A stretch of 14,166 nucleotides of DNA from a virus. Positions 1-6,897 of this stretch are shown here, piece by piece. Positions within the stretch are counted from its first letter, which is position 1. Each line of letters begins with the position of its first letter. Location of the stretch: the UHGV virus genome UHGV-1657835; one strand, written 5' to 3'. Under the pieces are notes generated by a model. That model did not search any database, was not told the origin of the DNA, and saw only the letters and a list, made by a program, of their open reading frames with translations. A program made the translations under genes and the position numbers.

Positions 1-171
1 TGGCGATTAAATACACCATTATCATGCCTTCAGCCACCACAACAAGGGAAGACCCTCATTTATACAGTATACATTAAAGAGACACCTTTGGTGCAAACGC
101 GTTACGTACATCAACCACCGCTGATGATTTTGTGCGCTTTGCTACTATTCATCACCAACGGATCAGCGTAA
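1..171 (+). CDS. Possible 3' end of a gene entering from upstream of the window (partial)
   Basis: Frame 1 is open from base 1 to a TAA at 169-171 (56 codons) and ends with a hydrophobic stretch (PLMILCALLLFITNGSA). It ends 23 nt before the RBS of the next gene. No start is visible in the window. Confidence 0.2.
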   Translation, partial: WRLNTPLSCLQPPQQGKTLIYTVYIKETPLVQTRYVHQPPLMILCALLLFITNGSA

Positions 172-381
172 CCTCGTTGCCAATCAGTTAATAAGGAATT
201 AGCTATGCCTAATCGCATTCCTCTCGATCCTGTATTGCCCAAAAATTTTGACTGCACTCCTAACGAGAAACGCTTTAAAGCTCAGCTGGACGCCTAGTGG
301 GACCATCCATATGGGGTTACACAACCTGACGGGAAAATTGTAGTTTATTGTCTGAATGGTGGGGCGTGGGACCGTCCATCC

Positions 382-789
382 GTGCTTTGTTTGGCAGATA
401 ACTATGATGAAGCCTGTGAACTTGCCGAAAGACAGCAGGCAAGCTGGGTAAAAACACGGTCTGAACCGACATTCATGTTTTCAAAAGAACCGCCATTTAT
501 ACTGGCGAGGATGTCGCAGCGACCGGATCATCAACAAGAAATTGTTGCTGAATTTTCCTCAAGGGATGAGATGAATCTCTTCTCATTAAAGCAGGAAGAA
601 AGGGATCGCGTCGAAGTGTCTCCAACTCTCGACCACAACCGGATGAACCTGGCCCAGCTCGCCTGGTACAGCAAAGAATTAGAGATGTCTATTGCCCGGC
701 TTGAAAACGAAAAAGCCGCTATCCAAGTCCAGCACGAAGTAGTTCTGAACCGGATTAGAGAAATGCAAAACGATAACAGGGGATTTTGA
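382..789 (+). CDS. Hypothetical protein with coiled-coil C-terminus; the frame continues upstream to ATG 205 but is broken by an in-frame TAG at 295-297
   Basis: ORF-track ORF with GTG start at 382. The same frame is open back to ATG 205, which has a good RBS (AAGGA, 194-198), with a single TAG at 295-297 in between. TGA 787-789 abuts the ATG of the next gene. Confidence 0.55.
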   Translation: MLCLADNYDEACELAERQQASWVKTRSEPTFMFSKEPPFILARMSQRPDHQQEIVAEFSSRDEMNLFSLKQEERDRVEVSPTLDHNRMNLAQLAWYSKELEMSIARLENEKAAIQVQHEVVLNRIREMQNDNRGF

Positions 790-1146
790 ATGGCTAAAAT
801 CGAGTACCATCGCGATCGCAGTAATTACCTGGAAATATACGATCATGAATCTCTTAACGATATCAACGATGCGTTATATGAATACTGTGAAAAAACGAGC
901 ATCACAGATGCACCTGATGCATTTGTCGAGCTGCCGGTATATCTCCGCGACATCTATGCAATACGAACACCGCCCGTATCGGTGATTCACATTGGCTATG
1001 TCCGCCTGTCCATCGAAGAAGATGAAGATCGTTATATCGTGCGCCACTATACATTGGACAGAAAAGAACTTCCTAATGAATGGAACATGAGTAATTTCTA
1101 CAACGGTGAATATGGCTTAAAATCCGCTAATAATTTACGGTCATAA
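790..1146 (+). CDS. Hypothetical protein (118 aa), translationally coupled to the upstream gene
   Basis: ATG 790 directly follows the upstream TGA (TGAATG), with an AGGGGA RBS 7 nt upstream. Acidic protein with no recognisable motif. Confidence 0.6.
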   Translation: MAKIEYHRDRSNYLEIYDHESLNDINDALYEYCEKTSITDAPDAFVELPVYLRDIYAIRTPPVSVIHIGYVRLSIEEDEDRYIVRHYTLDRKELPNEWNMSNFYNGEYGLKSANNLRS

Positions 1147-1272
1147 TCTATACAGGCATGTATAACAACAACGAGCCTATTAGCTGTCAACAACGTTATT
1201 TCCTCAAATAAGAAAAAGCAGAAAACAAATTGTTTAAGGTCACAAATTGTGGCCTTGATGGAGGAGGGAGGC

Positions 1273-1503
1273 TTATTGGCTATGGCTAAAAATCAAATTA
1301 GACACTTCATGTTGCTGTAGCTCATCAAGATCCGAGGCCACAAAACCTTTTCCGAAAAACTTCACAAGTAACTCACTAGCCGCATCATTGTCACCTATTA
1401 CACGAAAGTCATACGGCAACGTCGCAAGTTGACGATGTAATCCTGCTGAGAAAGTCGAATCTAACAGCGCCCAGAATTCCCACCGCAGGATAATACTCGC
1501 CTC
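1273..1503 (-). pseudogene. Possible gene remnant: protein-like open frame with no start codon
   Basis: Minus-strand frame of about 76 codons (EASIILRWEFWALLDSTFSAGLHRQLATLPYDFRVIGDNDAASELLVKFFGKGFVASDLDELQQHEVSNLIFSHSQ*) bounded by stops, with no ATG or GTG start. The composition looks protein-like, unlike the overlapping ORF-track ORFs in this region. Confidence 0.2.
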
Positions 1504-2008
1504 TTAATACTGTATATATGTTGTTACGATATGTTTTTCTGTCTCTAAAAAAAGATGTTAATAGAATGCTAACCATTGAAGGGGATAAAAATATACAATT
1601 CCAACAAACGTTATTTTTAACAATTTTTTTCTTTGCGTTGACTTTCCCGGACACCTTGTCTGACCGAAGGTGCGCGAAAGCCACTTTTTCCTTCCTGAGT
1701 TATCCACAAAGTTATGCACTTGCAAGAGGGCCATTTTCTACATATTGTGGTGGCTAACAGATGAAATGAATGTAGATTAATTGAAGATAAGGAGAAAATT
1801 TGAGATGCAATCATGACGTTAATAGATAGGGTCTGCATTACAGACCCCACCCGCATCAAGGAATTAGCCGTTCCCTGATGTTTTTCCGAAAACATGTGCC
1901 GTAAGCTCACGTTAACGACTTTCATTCACCGAATCCAACTATATAGGGGTTGGGTTTCTACGTCAACGTGAGCAAGTGCACCTTTACATTTGACAAGGAA
2001 CCACCTGA

Positions 2009-2146
2009 ATGAACGCTTTTTTTCAGTTCCTGAGTGCATTTTTAGATGCGCCTATTATTAGCCAGATTCTGGCTATTATCCTCATCATCGTTTTGATTTT
2101 GCTTTTAAGGTCAGTAAAAAATGGAATTATGCACTGGCTTACTTAA
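2009..2146 (+). CDS. Small hydrophobic membrane peptide (45 aa, one predicted TM helix)
   Basis: ATG 2009 with AAGGAA RBS 8-9 nt upstream. Translation is MNAFFQFLSAFLDAPIISQILAIILIIVLILLLRSVKNGIMHWLT. It is below the ORF-track length cutoff, convergent with the leftward operon, and followed by an 8-bp-stem hairpin (2145-2163). Confidence 0.45.
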   Translation: MNAFFQFLSAFLDAPIISQILAIILIIVLILLLRSVKNGIMHWLT

Positions 2147-2221
2147 TGTTTCAGTGAAACATTAAAATCTCCTTGATGTGGAAACAATCATTTTCTGTAT
2201 GTGCTGGTGGGCACCTGTAGT

Positions 2222-2584
2222 TCAGCTTTCGTTGGCATTTAACTTCGTCTTTGCTTTCTCCACCAGCAACTTCCAGATGCCTATTTCATTAGCAGCCGCC
2301 TTGATGGCGGCATAAAAAGCATCTTGCTGATCGTAACGCTGGATCTGTTTTTTCAGTTTTGCCTCCACCAATTTAATTTCATTACGTGCTTTCTGAAGCC
2401 GCATCACCGCCCGGTTACGTCTGTTCTTGTATAGCGTGTTAATCTCTGACAATTGCTTTAATTTACCAGCCTGACTGCGGATTATCGCCTCCCTGGCTTC
2501 TGCCGTGCGTCTCATCTTATCTCTTAAGAGTTCACCGTTTTCGATAATTCTTTCAAGGTGTTTGATGTGATCTGCAACTCTCAT
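2222..2584 (-). CDS. Hypothetical basic coiled-coil protein (120 aa); last gene of the leftward operon
   Basis: ATG 2584 overlaps the upstream stop as ATGA (plus 2581-2584). Lys/Arg-rich helical sequence. Confidence 0.7.
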   Translation of the reverse strand: MRVADHIKHLERIIENGELLRDKMRRTAEAREAIIRSQAGKLKQLSEINTLYKNRRNRAVMRLQKARNEIKLVEAKLKKQIQRYDQQDAFYAAIKAAANEIGIWKLLVEKAKTKLNANES

Positions 2585-3462
2585 ACTTCACCCTCGCTTG
2601 TATCACCAGCGTCCACCAACGACAATAAAGCCCTAGCCATCTTATGAACCAACAGTGCATCAATAATGCCAAGCGTATGCCCCGGCTTAATGTTTAATGC
2701 TGCCTCAAGATGACACCTTTCCAGACCGCTTTTCTCGGCTTGTTTATGATGATATGGCGTAATAACGTCGCCCAAAACACGGCTAATTCTTTCTCGTAAT
2801 TGCTGGGTGCCAGCACACTTGATCGCTGTATCGTGGAGACGGTTAACCAGTTCGCGATAAACATGCGGCTTAATGCGGATACGTTCACCGGTGACGCCCT
2901 TTCCTGGCGCAGGCACCGAACTATCCGGAATATCCGGATAGTTGCCAGCCAGTCTACGCAAAACAGCCTTAATTGCATCAATACGGTCATCATCAACTTT
3001 TTCTACAATATTGGAATTTAAATACTTCGAAGCCTTGCTATGCCAATCGCTGGTTTTAGGGTCTTGTCCATCCATCAAACGCCAAGCTTCAGCGATTAAC
3101 TCATAGCCAGTAACAGTGGCTTCCTGCGCATCACCAATCAGTTGTGTGATCTCTCTTTCAAGCATGCTTAGAGCGTTAGGCATTGGTTTTTCTTCCGGTA
3201 CTACTGGAACGGGGGGAGCGGCGTAGACCTCAATAATTCCATTATCAATAGGCCATTCTCCATCCTTGAGGTAGTCACTTGTGCCGTCAACTTGCTGTTC
3301 TGCAATGTGGAATGCACCTATTGGTTTTGCGTCCAGCGATGCCAGAGCAATTCGTGCCAGTTCTTCCGCTTCTTCTGCTGGCAGTACAACGTTGCTACCA
3401 GGTCCGTATGTTTCGCGCCACTGCTTGATTGTCAGTAGTCGCTCTTTGGTAATAGTGGTCAT
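2581..3462 (-). CDS. Hypothetical protein (293 aa)
   Basis: ATG 3462 with AAGGA RBS; ATGA overlap with the upstream gene (3459-3462) and the downstream gene (2581-2584). No motif recognised. Confidence 0.8.
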   Translation of the reverse strand: MTTITKERLLTIKQWRETYGPGSNVVLPAEEAEELARIALASLDAKPIGAFHIAEQQVDGTSDYLKDGEWPIDNGIIEVYAAPPVPVVPEEKPMPNALSMLEREITQLIGDAQEATVTGYELIAEAWRLMDGQDPKTSDWHSKASKYLNSNIVEKVDDDRIDAIKAVLRRLAGNYPDIPDSSVPAPGKGVTGERIRIKPHVYRELVNRLHDTAIKCAGTQQLRERISRVLGDVITPYHHKQAEKSGLERCHLEAALNIKPGHTLGIIDALLVHKMARALLSLVDAGDTSEGEV

Positions 3463-3974
3463 GCCGCGTTTCCTTCTTTCTTATTAACAATTACACCGTC
3501 ATATATTTCATTAAGGTGCCCTCTCAACTCCATGCGCCTTAATGCAGATAACATGTAATCGCATTCAACCTGCTTATTTCCAGTAAATGGCTTATCGTCA
3601 GGATTACCCCAACAGCAATTACCCTTGGGCCACCCATGTACTTTCCGTACTCTTCCGTTAACAACGTGAAGTAATCCCCAGCCAGGTGGTAAATCCTCAA
3701 TTGAAATAATTCCCGGCTCACTAATAAAGAATCGCCAGTCGCCCATTCCAAGAGACGGATTTTTACGAAAACGCTTTTTTCTATCTGCCAACAAGTCAGC
3801 ACGAGAACACTTCGCCTCTATCAGGCATGATGCTGAATTTCTGAATCCCATAGCATCTGGCTGTTCTCCGGTACTGGTTACAGCTATAAAGCGGTCATGA
3901 AAACAAACCTTGAACCCGTTGCGCTTAAGGAACTTGTACGCAATCTGACAGAGTTCGCGGTGTGTTAACGCCAT
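3459..3974 (-). CDS. Putative PD-(D/E)xK nuclease-fold protein (possibly MmcB-like); function uncertain
   Basis: ATG 3974, one nt after the upstream TGA. Contains a ...GEQPDAMGF...LIEAKCSRAD... pattern compatible with a PD-(D/E)xK motif. The family assignment is from memory. Confidence 0.7.
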   Translation of the reverse strand: MALTHRELCQIAYKFLKRNGFKVCFHDRFIAVTSTGEQPDAMGFRNSASCLIEAKCSRADLLADRKKRFRKNPSLGMGDWRFFISEPGIISIEDLPPGWGLLHVVNGRVRKVHGWPKGNCCWGNPDDKPFTGNKQVECDYMLSALRRMELRGHLNEIYDGVIVNKKEGNAA

Positions 3975-3975
3975 A

Positions 3976-4656
3976 TCACTCTCCTTTGATGCGAATGCCA
4001 GCGTCAGACATCATATGCAGATACTCAACTGTATCCTGAACCCATTGACCGCCAATCCCGTAATAGCGATGCGTAATGATGTCGATAGTTACTAACGCGT
4101 CTTGTTCGATTAACTTCCGCAGAAACTCTTCCAGGTCACCAGTGCAGTGCTTGATGACAGGAGTTTTCCCAGGATGGCGAACAACAAGAAACTGATTTCC
4201 GACTTCACGGACTTCGTTGCTTTCCAGTTCTGCTATGCGCTTACTTCCATCCGCGATTACTCCCTCGTAATATTCACGCTGCTCGTTGAGTTTTGATTTT
4301 GCTGTTTCAAGCTCAACGCGCAGCTTCCCTACCGTTAGCGCAATATCCTCGTTCTCCTGGTCGCGGCGTTTGATGTATTGCTGGTTTCTTTCCCGTTCAT
4401 CCAGTAGTGCCAGCACGGTAGCTGGACTGGCTGCTGCGATGAATTCAGCATTGGCCTGCTGTTCCATTTGGAAATCTTCATCGAAATCGCTTTCTGGATG
4501 CGCTCCTTCAATTCTGCAAATGGGAATATATCCAGCAACTTCACGATGAATTAGCGCATCATCACCATCAAATCGGCTCTCTCCATATTCGAGCGACCAT
4601 ACACCACACGTTGCTTTTTCTGCCTTTTCACGCAGTGCCTGATAGTCAATTTTCAT
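3976..4656 (-). CDS. Ead/Ea22-like protein
   Basis: N-terminal region (KIDYQALREKAEKATCGVW...NAEFIAAASPATVLALLDERER) matches the conserved Ead/Ea22 signature of enterobacterial phages as I recall it, followed by a coiled coil. I place the start at ATG 4656, which has an AAGGA RBS 8 nt upstream and an ATGA overlap with the upstream stop; the ORF track starts it at 4665. Confidence 0.8.
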   Translation of the reverse strand: MKIDYQALREKAEKATCGVWSLEYGESRFDGDDALIHREVAGYIPICRIEGAHPESDFDEDFQMEQQANAEFIAAASPATVLALLDERERNQQYIKRRDQENEDIALTVGKLRVELETAKSKLNEQREYYEGVIADGSKRIAELESNEVREVGNQFLVVRHPGKTPVIKHCTGDLEEFLRKLIEQDALVTIDIITHRYYGIGGQWVQDTVEYLHMMSDAGIRIKGE

Positions 4657-5297
4657 ACTCGCCATCCTTCACAGTTGTAATCACGACATCCTTCAAAATC
4701 ATATGGGCTGTACTGCCAGGTAATTTTTCCGCAATGCGGACAATTCCAGCGCACCTTACCGCTTCGCGACTTTTTTCTTCTGTTTTGTTTTTTCAACCAG
4801 TCAGGTATGACCAAACCTGCGCCCTGAACCATTGTTCTGCGGTTAAAATTATTGATATTGAACGTCCGGCGCTTTGCTACATCGGCAATGGAAAATGGCA
4901 ACCAAACTATTCCTGGCTCGTTTTTGTTAGCGACGCTAAAGATGGTTGCTTTACTGAAGTCATCTGTTGGCAATCCACCGTGTTGAAGCCAGTAAACATC
5001 GTTGCCGTTCCAGCTACCTTTTTTGTAGGCCACATACGCAGTGCAATCTGACTCAATCAGGCTTTCTGTGGGGATGTACTGGCAATCAACGTGCCACAGA
5101 GCCATTGCATCCACGCTATCAGCGCAAACAGGCTGATCGATATCTCGTCCACAATTCCAGGCTTTTTGGGCTTCTTCCAGCGTGTAAACATGAGCGCGAT
5201 CGATATCAGAACTGTAACCATTGCCGTTATGGCAATGGAATGAGGCGTTATTACCCACAGTTTCACGCAAGCACATCATGTAAAAGCGGTTATTCAC
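4653..5297 (-). CDS. Hypothetical protein with C-terminal Cys-rich zinc-binding motif
   Basis: GTG 5297 with GGAGG RBS 6 nt upstream. C-terminus has CPHCGK...CRDYNCEG. The start overlaps the end of the upstream gene by 8 nt. Confidence 0.75.
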   Translation of the reverse strand: MNNRFYMMCLRETVGNNASFHCHNGNGYSSDIDRAHVYTLEEAQKAWNCGRDIDQPVCADSVDAMALWHVDCQYIPTESLIESDCTAYVAYKKGSWNGNDVYWLQHGGLPTDDFSKATIFSVANKNEPGIVWLPFSIADVAKRRTFNINNFNRRTMVQGAGLVIPDWLKKQNRRKKSRSGKVRWNCPHCGKITWQYSPYDFEGCRDYNCEGWRV

Positions 5298-5550
5298 TGG
5301 TTGCCTCCGCTTCCCACGTTTTCAGACTTTCACCACAGAACGGGCAAAATGAAACTCGAATAGGCGATTTAGAAAATTCACCAGACCGCAGCATGATCAG
5401 GTCTTGTGAATGAATTAATTCATGGTTATAGATTTTGTATTTCAGCAGACCTTTTCGCGTCGTGTATTCAGCGTCATGCTCCAGGGATTGTGCCAACGCC
5501 GCGCACGGTTCTATCTTGTTGCCATTAATTTGGCATTTTGACTCACTCAC
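5290..5550 (-). CDS. Small zinc-ribbon protein
   Basis: Contains two Cys pairs (C..C near the N-terminus and CPFCGE). The ORF track starts it at TTG 5574, which has no RBS; GTG 5550 has an AGGGGG RBS 6 nt upstream and overlaps the upstream stop by 8 nt, so I prefer it. Confidence 0.65.
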   Translation of the reverse strand: MSESKCQINGNKIEPCAALAQSLEHDAEYTTRKGLLKYKIYNHELIHSQDLIMLRSGEFSKSPIRVSFCPFCGESLKTWEAEATSE

Positions 5551-6124
5551 TGGTTGCCCCCTGAATACGCTCAAACTCTATTACCCACACCCAAGGATTA
5601 GCGTTCCAACTATCTTCGCCATAAATTGATTTCCATAGGCTAGGGAAACCTGGGTAATGCTTATCGCCAATGAGGGTCGATTCTGTTGGTGCGCCCTCAG
5701 CCCTTGCATCGCATTCGCTGATATCGTTCAACCGCTCAACGCGAACGTTGGTAATTTCCAGAAGAATGCGCGATGCCCAGCGCGGCATGTGAATTGATGG
5801 CGTCCACTTTTCTGATACTGGTTTATTACAAACCTCGACCGGAACCCGGTGCGTTTGTTCTGTCCAGGAGTTACGCACGCTTGCGCGATAAACCAGCGTT
5901 GCGACGTCCGTCGCTTTGCCATGTACCCGGTAGGTTTCGCGAACCCAAATACGATCGCCCGGTTGACCATATGGACAATGCTTGGCAAGCAACTCTGCGG
6001 CCACTGCCCGTCCATAGAATTTTTCTTCAACAATCCTGCGAGTCTGTGTTTTATTCCCGCCAAGAATTGCCCGGACCATCTCATCGTTAAAAATCATGCC
6101 GCGCTCTTTCACTTCGCCTTTCAT
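5543..6124 (-). CDS. ASCH/PUA-like domain protein (phage-associated family)
   Basis: ATG 6124 with strong RBS AGGGGGA. N-terminal MIFNDEMVRAILGGNKTQTRR resembles the GxKxxExR-type ASCH motif common in prophage proteins. The domain call is from memory. Confidence 0.8.
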   Translation of the reverse strand: MKGEVKERGMIFNDEMVRAILGGNKTQTRRIVEEKFYGRAVAAELLAKHCPYGQPGDRIWVRETYRVHGKATDVATLVYRASVRNSWTEQTHRVPVEVCNKPVSEKWTPSIHMPRWASRILLEITNVRVERLNDISECDARAEGAPTESTLIGDKHYPGFPSLWKSIYGEDSWNANPWVWVIEFERIQGATSE

Positions 6125-6133
6125 GCATCCCCC

Positions 6134-6220
6134 TTACCCATGAGCGACGATGCCGCCAAAAGTGATAGAGAACTGCCAGAAATAGATCGCGGCCATAATG
6201 ATTTTGAATGCCGTGTTCAT
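6134..6220 (-). CDS. Small hydrophobic peptide (28 aa), leader gene of the operon
   Basis: ATG 6220 with AGGAG RBS 9 nt upstream. Translation is MNTAFKIIMAAIYFWQFSITFGGIVAHG. Its TAA stop sits inside the RBS of the next gene. Not in the ORF track because it is too short. Confidence 0.4.
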   Translation of the reverse strand: MNTAFKIIMAAIYFWQFSITFGGIVAHG

Positions 6221-6247
6221 ATTTTCAGCTCCTGTGATTGATTGGAT

Positions 6248-6270
6248 ACATGCCGCGCCTTGCGGCATGT
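6248..6270 (+). terminator. GC-rich hairpin followed by a T-run on the plus strand; lies in the 5' leader of the leftward operon
   Basis: CATGCCGC-gcctt-GCGGCATG (8-9 bp stem) followed on the plus strand by TTTTTATTTT. On the minus strand it is preceded by an A-run and has no U-tract after it, so it would only terminate plus-strand (antisense) transcription, or act as a leader structure. Confidence 0.35.
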
Positions 6271-6282
6271 TTTTATTTTCAC

Positions 6283-6319
6283 TTTCTCTGTTTTAAAAAT
6301 CAATATTTATTAGAGCAAT
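6283..6319 (-). promoter_or_regulatory. P1 C1-operator-like 17-mer plus a conserved A/T block; putative repressor-controlled promoter for the leftward operon
   Basis: Minus-strand ATTGCTCTAATAAATAT (plus 6303-6319) matches ATTGCTCTAATAAATTT at 16 of 17 positions. It is followed after 2 nt by ATTTTTAAAAC, the same arrangement as the copy at 8444-8460. TTGCTC could serve as a -35 with a -10-like hexamer 17 nt downstream. Confidence 0.55.
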
Positions 6320-6825
6320 TATTGTTGATGAAGAAGCGCGTTTTCATACTCCCTGACCATTAACGTAAGCACGCCGTGCCTCCTGAAAACACGCGCCACT
6401 TCAATCTTATCTTCCAGCGCGAACGCGATTTTACTTAGACCAATTTTCTTAAGGAGATCAATCTTTGCTGGGCCGTCATTTCTGTCATCGGTGGCAGGAC
6501 GCATAGATAGCAAAGGCTCAGCCCCATTTGTTACGTGCTTACGCAACCAAGCTCGTGTTTTATCCCTGGCTATCTCACAGCGCCCGGTTACAAACCAGAG
6601 CGTGTAAATGCTGGACAACTGGCGCACCATATCAATAACTGGAGTGATGGGAGCATCAGTGTCACAGGCAAGGTTAAACTCGTTCCAGTGCTCTGTTAAT
6701 GCACCTTTGCCAGGTGGTGGAAGTAAATGCAGCCTGTCTTCCGTTGCCTCTGATATTGTTCCATCAATATCAACTATGACGATATACGGACGTTCCTGGT
6801 GTGCGTGTTTATTGAAAATACTCAA
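6319..6825 (-). CDS. HAD-superfamily phosphatase, polynucleotide-kinase 3'-phosphatase-like
   Basis: HAD motif I in YIVIVDIDGTIS (DxDGT), motif II in WFVTGR, then a conserved Lys and an acidic motif (ALEDK). TTG start at 6825 with GAGGAGGG RBS. Confidence 0.8.
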   Translation of the reverse strand: MSIFNKHAHQERPYIVIVDIDGTISEATEDRLHLLPPPGKGALTEHWNEFNLACDTDAPITPVIDMVRQLSSIYTLWFVTGRCEIARDKTRAWLRKHVTNGAEPLLSMRPATDDRNDGPAKIDLLKKIGLSKIAFALEDKIEVARVFRRHGVLTLMVREYENALLHQQ

Positions 6826-6843
6826 ATGCCCTCCTCATTGGAC

Positions 6844-6877
6844 GAAAAAAATGCTGGTGGGCGCACTCCACCAGCAT
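6844..6877 (-). terminator. Rho-independent terminator for the upstream leftward operon; palindrome carries Chi on both strands
   Basis: ATGCTGGTGG-gcgcact-CCACCAGCAT (10-bp arms) followed on the minus strand by seven T. It lies between the stop of the 420-aa gene (6898) and the start of the HAD gene (6825). Confidence 0.6.
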
Positions 6878-6897
6878 TAAAAGTGACACTGTAACTG

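Follow-up and report, generated by a model that had tools for sequence, protein, structure and literature searches.

A probably decaying accessory locus in a P1/P7-type phage-plasmid: an lxr pseudogene, an intact optional neighbour and ISKox3 in the LexA box

The gene lxr of phage P1 (YP_006568, 'LexA regulated function') and its P7 counterpart upf94.2 lie divergent from humD, and in some P1-like phage-plasmids lxr is directly followed by a second small gene, upf93.6 in P7 and gp084 in SJ46 (PHROG 5797), which is absent from P1. In P1 the corresponding slot is filled by hot, a DNA polymerase III theta homologue encoded on the other strand. Two further kinds of system invite comparison. In type II toxin-antitoxin (TA) pairs, such as phd-doc of P1, two small genes of the same orientation likewise lie side by side on a plasmid prophage, the stop codon of one abutting the start codon of the next. 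PsiB-like plasmid proteins, which are linked to the SOS response, are small, acidic and borne on mobile elements, where the surrounding region contains ssb, ardC, umuD-type or TA genes. The pmgT...hot-lxr-humD segment has been described as one of eight hypervariable regions in P1-like phage-plasmids (PMC9603915), and in a CRISPR interference (CRISPRi) screen of P1 lxr was non-essential, its knock-down having no effect on P1 growth (PMC10695390). Here we describe an lxr-upf93.6 locus in a stretch of 14,166 nucleotides from the virus genome UHGV-1657835 (the window); its lxr is a pseudogene, its upf93.6 (gene 2) is intact and its LexA box has been cut by the insertion sequence (IS) ISKox3.

Sequence comparison identifies the source of the window as a phage-plasmid of the P1/P7/SJ46 type. 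Positions 56-2400 are 99.4-99.6% identical to SJ46, P7 and P1-like plasmids, in an orientation that is the reverse of the P1 coordinates. For P7, SJ46 and pJIE250_3 the identity over the region is 99.4-99.8%, and the gene boundaries match (features are collected in Table 1). The first gene is P1 lxr/P7 upf94.2 (585 bp), in the same place, and gene 2 is P7 upf93.6 (357 bp), at the same coordinates relative to lxr and with no difference of substance from its P7 and SJ46 counterparts. In the P7 and SJ46 annotation the pair stands to the right of humD-phd-doc-pdcAB-lpa-pacA and to the left of the pmgV...pmgS block. Neither gene is therefore new, both having been annotated before. The locus is variable and has an accessory character. 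An earlier note, made from the sequence of the window alone, had proposed two rightward genes at 205-1146 as an accessory cassette. Both are indeed annotated P7 genes, but the frame of the first is broken by a TAG codon. The accessory character holds, given that lxr is dispensable in P1 (PMC10695390), that the segment is hypervariable (PMC9603915) and that gene 2 occurs in some lineages only; neither gene is a core gene with a known role, lxr being positionally conserved but dispensable and without known function, and gene 2 being variable. We consider it probable that this is a decaying accessory locus, composed of a dead lxr and an intact optional gene 2, with no working two-gene system.

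The case for decay starts from codon 31 of lxr, which reads TAG in the window as against TGG in P7, SJ46, P1 and pJIE250_3, at a tryptophan that is invariant across 52 aligned Lxr homologues. An intact frame encoding the conserved N-terminal domain of Lxr (N-domain) was thus not found. Over positions 56-1300 the window differs from pJIE250_3 at only three sites, each of which alters a protein: Lxr S24F, at a residue that at least 90% of the family share, the W31 stop itself, and G11S in gene 2. With codon 31 restored, the product matches PHROG 6164 over its full length (1-194 of 194, E=1.5e-133) and shows about 90% amino-acid identity to P1 Lxr, 98-99% to P7 and SJ46 and 98% to cluster P0001; the last 15 or so codons are unlike those of P1 because the 3' end of lxr contains a P1/P7 recombination breakpoint. 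The window copy thus departs from P1 and P7 Lxr in the amber codon, in S24F and in a LexA box cut by ISKox3. As the TAG interrupts the frame 205-789, a program-made listing of open reading frames (ORFs) reported only a leftover of 135 amino acids with a GTG start (382-789). This leftover is without residues 1-59, including most of the invariant positions (W31, W32, D33, C49-R57), there is no evident Shine-Dalgarno sequence upstream of GTG 382, and RefSeq calls it a 'hypothetical protein' (WP_001354543.1) in plasmids with the TAG allele. Its exact protein sequence was found on 24 contigs, and the TAG was present in 10 of 10 loci inspected, in 8 of the 69 complete Escherichia coli plasmids with this type of lxr (three of the eight belong to substrains of a single strain) and in 7 of 92 PLSDB plasmids. 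Since it recurs in independent assemblies and in metagenomes, on those 24 contigs and in 8/69 complete plasmids, the TAG is real and no sequencing error. Further lxr alleles with truncations or frameshifts are frequent in the database, where two PHROGs represent the N-terminal and the C-terminal fragment of Lxr. On these grounds lxr in the window is a pseudogene.

The second part of the argument concerns whether the two genes belong together. The position of lxr is constant in every P1-like lineage sampled and the gene downstream of it differs: hot in P1 and a P0011-type lineage, gene 2 in P7, SJ46 and the diverged locus L015, an ORF of 70 amino acids in one lineage from Salmonella and, in one from Enterobacter, an H-NS gene in convergent orientation. 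Where gene 2 is missing, its place is thus taken by hot, by the 70-amino-acid ORF or by nothing. The hot module is alternative cargo in the same slot, at a single recombination hotspot, and differs from gene 2 in lying on the opposite strand and in encoding an unrelated PF06440 protein, a known analogue of DNA polymerase III theta. Relatives of gene 2, for their part, are found behind a helix-turn-helix (HTH) protein in the same abutting arrangement (L023), behind an Mrr-type nuclease gene (L021) or behind a 320-amino-acid winged-helix-like protein in Salmonella plasmids. Such upstream partners (320 amino acids in L016, 136 in L023, 194 in L021) were considered as Lxr-like proteins and rejected. 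An intact gene 2 accompanies a knocked-out lxr in the window and on no fewer than 24 public contigs. The obligate co-occurrence expected of a type II TA pair is consequently missing, each gene occurring without the other, and neither protein contains a recognisable toxin or antitoxin domain. A TA or obligate two-component system does not fit because the genes occur independently, lxr knock-outs keep gene 2 and P1 has lxr alone; judged by their distribution, the genes are independent and no obligate pair. Unlike phd-doc and other type II TA pairs, one of the two can be lost without the other. A presence/absence comparison among relatives, as suggested in the earlier note, gave a divided answer, with gene 2 present in some lineages only and lxr kept in place in all P1-like lineages sampled.

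The control region of lxr has been disrupted as well. The 55-mer that opens the window occurs in 1,310 plasmid records, and in two of the loci examined (L005 and L006) an identical end lies 67 bp past the coding sequence of an ISKox3-family transposase, with 8-bp target duplications there; ISKox3 is about 1,316 bp long with matching inverted repeats. Membership of ISKox3 follows from the terminal inverted repeat beside a transposase gene and the 8-bp duplication in L005 and L006, the window containing only one ISKox3 end, so that the target duplication at this site is not visible in it; the transposase gene is expected on the minus strand, beyond the left edge of the window. The uninterrupted site, CTGTTCATTTATACAG, is present in P1, P7, SJ46 and pJIE250_3 and is a LexA binding site according to the P1 and P7 records. 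At the window junction CTGT/TCATTTAT/ACAG has been turned into ...GACCC/TCATTTATACAG, the left half-site CTGT being replaced by IS DNA, and the 8-bp spacer TCATTTAT is the expected target-site duplication. No CTGT-N8-ACAG with up to one mismatch is left at this operator position in the window. Because the junction falls within the LexA box, the operator is destroyed and humD is cut off from lxr. The divergent humD-lxr arrangement around one LexA box, intact in P1, P7, SJ46, pJIE250_3 and L024, is lost in the window, humD lying beyond it.

The order of these events can be read from the TAG-allele loci, nine of ten of which retain CTGT-N8-ACAG and humD. One of them (L024) is base-identical to positions 56-1300 without any IS, and among the ten the IS is present only in L033, a gut-metagenome contig matching the window. 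The amber mutation therefore came first and the IS insertion last. A model in which the IS derepressed a toxic lxr and so selected for the amber codon was rejected for the same reasons. The LexA box before lxr is otherwise conserved in P1, P7, SJ46 and the P0011-type lineage, and also in the diverged L015. In the latter (5283-5319) a consensus-perfect LexA box, CTGTATACATATACAG, stands within a longer perfect palindrome, CAAACACATACTGTATACATATACAGTATGTGTTTG, and is shared with a divergent gene of 84 amino acids in the place of humD. Neither a convincing lxr promoter nor an IS-derived hybrid promoter was found by consensus search and by eye.

The explanation that we consider probable is as follows. 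In relatives with an intact locus, lxr would be read rightward from the divergent humD-lxr control region with its single LexA box, and the P7/SJ46 lineage has upf93.6 as an additional gene directly behind the lxr stop, with a ribosome-binding site of its own. We propose that gene 2 rides on the lxr transcript, as it is placed right behind the lxr stop. The N-domain of Lxr may bind a conserved host partner in DNA metabolism, or DNA, with the C-terminal helix making Lxr bivalent, and gene 2 would be a separate, optional, small acidic cargo and not the obligate partner of Lxr. Three steps of decay can be seen in the window, the change of W31 to TAG, by which the N-domain was lost, then S24 to F and, latest, the entry of ISKox3 into the LexA box, separating humD and destroying the operator; a full-length product is now possible from gene 2 only.

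Several points weigh against this explanation. The lxr-gene 2 pair is kept in the diverged L015, at 63% and 53% identity, which leaves some room for a functional link. The distance from the LexA box is 153 nt to the start of lxr and only about 20 nt to humD, no sigma-70-like promoter was detected between the box and lxr, and no LexA box is found upstream in lineages L037-L039 or in any of the short-form homologues examined, a single poor CTG-N10-CAG site in L095 being the sole exception among these box-less homologues. Given the distance of the box, the missing promoter and the box-less lineages, LexA control of lxr is putative, at the level of annotation. Neither a database match nor an experiment assigns a role to either protein, and the RefSeq label 'DNA-binding protein' for Lxr, which could not be traced to an NCBIfam model, is odd for an acidic family.

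Gene 2 itself encodes an intact protein of 118 amino acids with an isoelectric point (pI) of 4.8, which matches PHROG 5797 over its full length (1-118 of 118, E=3.7e-76), occurs in exactly this form on 14 contigs and differs from its closest relative by a single residue, G11S. The family is small (100-123 amino acids), acidic throughout and marked by the motif IGYV..L...H[YF]TLD[RK]KEL..W...FY.G.YGLK. Profile matches to proteins of 1,000-3,000 amino acids were spurious, the proteins being leucine-rich-repeat proteins, and a match to DUF7588 was set aside as weak (E=0.0038, below threshold, in 3 of 24 members only). Perhaps gene 2 alone is functional here, as a small acidic anti-defence or establishment protein (a DNA mimic or an inhibitor) that travels as exchangeable cargo, with lxr as its transcriptional host. 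The median pI of the family, 4.8, would suit such a role, as would its presence and absence among close, syntenic relatives, the alternation with hot in one slot and the intact state of gene 2 on hundreds of contigs while lxr decays. Relatives occur among HEPN_RiboL-PSP, Mrr_cat and PLDc_2 genes, and GC content drops from 46% to 38-41%, below that of the backbone, over the 3' half of gene 2 and the spacer behind it. We nevertheless regard this as doubtful: no match was found to the known anti-restriction and anti-CRISPR families of Pfam or PHROGs, the gene is not flanked by a promoter or terminator consensus of its own, and the upstream amber codon may lower its expression by polarity.

Lxr consists of a conserved acidic alpha/beta N-domain of about 125 amino acids and a long C-terminal helix that is restricted to the P1 group. 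The AlphaFold model (predicted local distance difference test, pLDDT, 86) has one long helix at residues 149-192, in agreement with the coiled-coil C-terminus noticed earlier; this helix is probably a coiled-coil dimerisation arm. The N-domain family comprises at least 486 clusters at 90% identity, of stand-alone proteins of 130-140 amino acids, with no domain fusions among the 120 best matches listed. Its carriers include many plasmids, regions resembling integrative and conjugative elements (ICEs) and phage-plasmids, 890 of them plasmids in PLSDB (about 1.2%). Identity is 50-65% across Escherichia, Klebsiella, Pseudomonas, Xanthomonas, Bradyrhizobium and Burkholderia, and 26-31 positions are invariant, including LD.WWD.P and CLNGG.WDR; the family has a median pI of 5.05. 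Purifying selection acts on both genes in lineages where they are intact; for lxr the ratio of nonsynonymous to synonymous substitution rates (dN/dS) is 0.22-0.24. Compared with the diverged pair of L015, both genes behave as real coding sequences, with proportions of synonymous (pS) and nonsynonymous (pN) differences of 0.81-0.83 and 0.24-0.28 respectively. As the earlier note had said, no known domain is recognisable in either protein: neither matched Pfam, NCBIfam, PADLOC, the PDB or a fold library, PADLOC-DB 2.0 gave zero families for either at E up to 1, and only PHROGs of unknown function were hit. The literature searched gives lxr no function. By analogy with PsiB-type proteins a part in modulating the host response to DNA damage is plausible, although no sequence or fold similarity to anything was detected and the N-domain is a family of its own.

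A bolder proposal can be built on this family, and we think it rather improbable. The N-domain would represent a large, structurally unmatched family of proteins on mobile elements that binds a conserved host DNA-damage or replication factor. The P1 group would have added LexA control and a dimerising helix, and some lineages an Upf93.6-type partner, giving a new SOS-triggered accessory or anti-defence module whose operator is a preferred ISKox3 site.

It is more improbable still that Lxr and Upf93.6 act jointly as a working two-gene module, whether a TA system or a two-component defence or anti-defence system, as the earlier note had suggested. The junction that had prompted this is as described, the TGA of lxr being followed at once by the ATG of gene 2 behind an AGGGGA Shine-Dalgarno sequence, on a common strand; each protein is small and acidic, the diverged L015 has kept the pair, the hypervariable location adjoins the phd-doc addiction module, and relatives elsewhere adjoin HEPN, Mrr or PLD-type genes. 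Yet lxr stands alone in the P1, P0011-type, Salmonella and Enterobacter lineages, gene 2 has relatives without lxr, and many natural plasmids have lxr knocked out beside an intact gene 2. Taken together, the evidence is that neither gene behaves as a toxin needing the other. PADLOC, Pfam and the PDB give no match, and CRISPRi of lxr in P1 was without phenotype (PMC10695390). That lxr is still functional, the TAG being an error or suppressed or the 135-amino-acid product (linker and coiled coil) being active, is scarcely credible: this ORF is intact and RefSeq-annotated and the TAG allele persists in several plasmid backgrounds, but the codon recurs in independent assemblies and metagenomes, the leftover lacks most of the invariant core and an evident Shine-Dalgarno sequence, upstream of the stop the gene has picked up S24F, as a dead gene would, and other frameshifted or truncated lxr alleles are common. 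We note one natural variant protein (P0059, equivalent to about 512-1146) with TGG in place of the lxr stop TGA, so that the C-terminal part of Lxr is fused in frame to Upf93.6 (...NDNRGFWMAKIEY...).

With a probably decaying locus as the preferred reading, the result for the cassette is mostly corrective, these being known, annotated and dispensable genes of a well-studied phage, and as the first gene is dead in the window copy the cassette deserves no priority as a candidate for a new defence or toxin module. The N-domain of Lxr is worth following up, as a widespread, tightly conserved family of plasmids and phage-plasmids without a Pfam model, a fold match or a function.

The insertion in the LexA box fits a wider pattern in the target sites of ISKox3. 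Each of the first three copies located had entered a CTGT-N8-ACAG-like site within its 8-bp spacer, which was duplicated. A further 43 ISKox3 ends were gathered from species-representative genomes, yielding 41 unique right flanks. In 24 of the 41, ACAG stood at offset +9, with exactly 8 bp between it and the IS end; at each of the other offsets from 1 to 20 it was counted 0-1 times. The eight bases preceding ACAG are AT-rich and T/A follows it, as in the consensus of E. coli LexA boxes. On the left, most flanks have CTGT plus 8 nt at their end, and each of the seven sites whose 8-bp duplication is intact departs from CTGT-N8-ACAG by no more than one mismatch. Among 11 right-flank genes examined, four encode a Peptidase_S24 (UmuD-like) protein and start about 30 nt from the insertion; further UmuD-like neighbours are umuD in pK516_NDM1 and humD at the window site. 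From these flanks ISKox3 appears to target SOS/LexA boxes. The literature searched contains no description of a link between ISKox3 or the ISL3 family and LexA boxes, which may be recorded elsewhere, for example in ISfinder. If confirmed, an IS common on resistance plasmids would systematically uncouple umuDC-type mutagenesis and other SOS genes from LexA, which would matter for mutation rates and for how resistance plasmids evolve. The genome of Candidatus Symbiopectobacterium endolongispinus (L052-L093) harbours more than 20 copies of ISKox3, the flanks of which mostly share no common target duplication and each retain their own half-box. This suggests frequent IS-IS recombination after insertion at different SOS-box-like sites.

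Homologues of the N-domain stand in varied settings outside the P1 group. In Klebsiella phage-plasmids of about 110 kb (L007-L010, 6001-7763) a short Lxr homologue lies between a cluster of RecA, 5'-3' exonuclease and gp32-like genes and a gene for HEPN_Toprim_N plus HEPN_RiboL-PSP, which is split into two ORFs in L008; the region adjoins a plasmid-borne gene for DNA polymerase III alpha. In plasmids of about 47-64 kb from Pseudomonas, Xanthomonas and Agrobacterium (L011-L014, about 5546-7040) a homologue of 135 amino acids is third in an overlapping four-gene operon, in the order of an uncalled ORF of about 82 amino acids, an ORF of 66-67 amino acids, the N-domain homologue and a serine resolvase, an arrangement that hints at a link to site-specific recombination or multimer resolution. 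Alpha-proteobacterial elements carry the N-domain gene in regions rich in TA and ArdC genes, and IncHI1B plasmids amid runs of hypothetical genes.

Table 1. Features at the left end of the window, with the basis of each assignment or a remark
Feature	Position	Strand	Basis or remark
ISKox3 terminal 55 bp, inverted-repeat end GGGTCTTCCC... (read inward)	1..55	-	ISL3 family; P1/P7 homology begins at base 56
Remnant of the humD/lxr LexA operator: 8-bp spacer TCATTTAT and right half-site ACAG	56..67		comparison with P1, P7, SJ46 and pJIE250_3
lxr/upf94.2, pseudogene (W31amber, S24F)	205..789	+	translation; alignment to P7, SJ46 and P1; PHROG 6164
In-frame TAG for TGG (Trp31)	295..297	+	alignment of 52 family members
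Leftover 135-amino-acid ORF, GTG start	382..789	+	ORF listing; RefSeq WP_001354543.1
Junction: Shine-Dalgarno AGGGGA 778-783, lxr stop TGA 787-789, gene 2 ATG 790-792	778..792	+	sequence; P7/SJ46 boundaries alike
Gene 2, upf93.6 homologue, intact, 118 amino acids	790..1146	+	PHROG 5797
Variable low-GC (38-41%) spacer	1147..2221		homology and GC content

The gene pair had been described as transcribed opposite to nearly everything else in the window. This is true of the leftward block at 2222-12010, on the strand opposite to the pair, but three rightward ORFs are also present at 12157-14133. An Rfam search of the window found no RNA family. The gap to the leftward block, put at 860 bp and called gene-poor in the earlier note, measures 1,075 bp from gene 2 to the first long leftward ORF and has more in it than that description allows. 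At about 1220-1484 on the minus strand lies the 3' remnant of a gene of 174 amino acids that is intact in phage PhiR41_1, and from about 1670 there is homology to the upfN/upfM region of P1. In P7 the spacer has four small annotated ORFs together with IS903 at the equivalent of about 1410, and in pEC21Z048-103K ISVsa5 lies near the same point. The spacer, at about 1380-1460, is a recurrent landing zone for ISs in relatives. A further swap of cargo is found in the neighbouring segment, to the left of phd-doc, where in L030, L031 and L036 the pdcB/lpa side of doc has been replaced by a block with a dUTPase and a Tad2-like protein (PF11195, the anti-Thoeris family).

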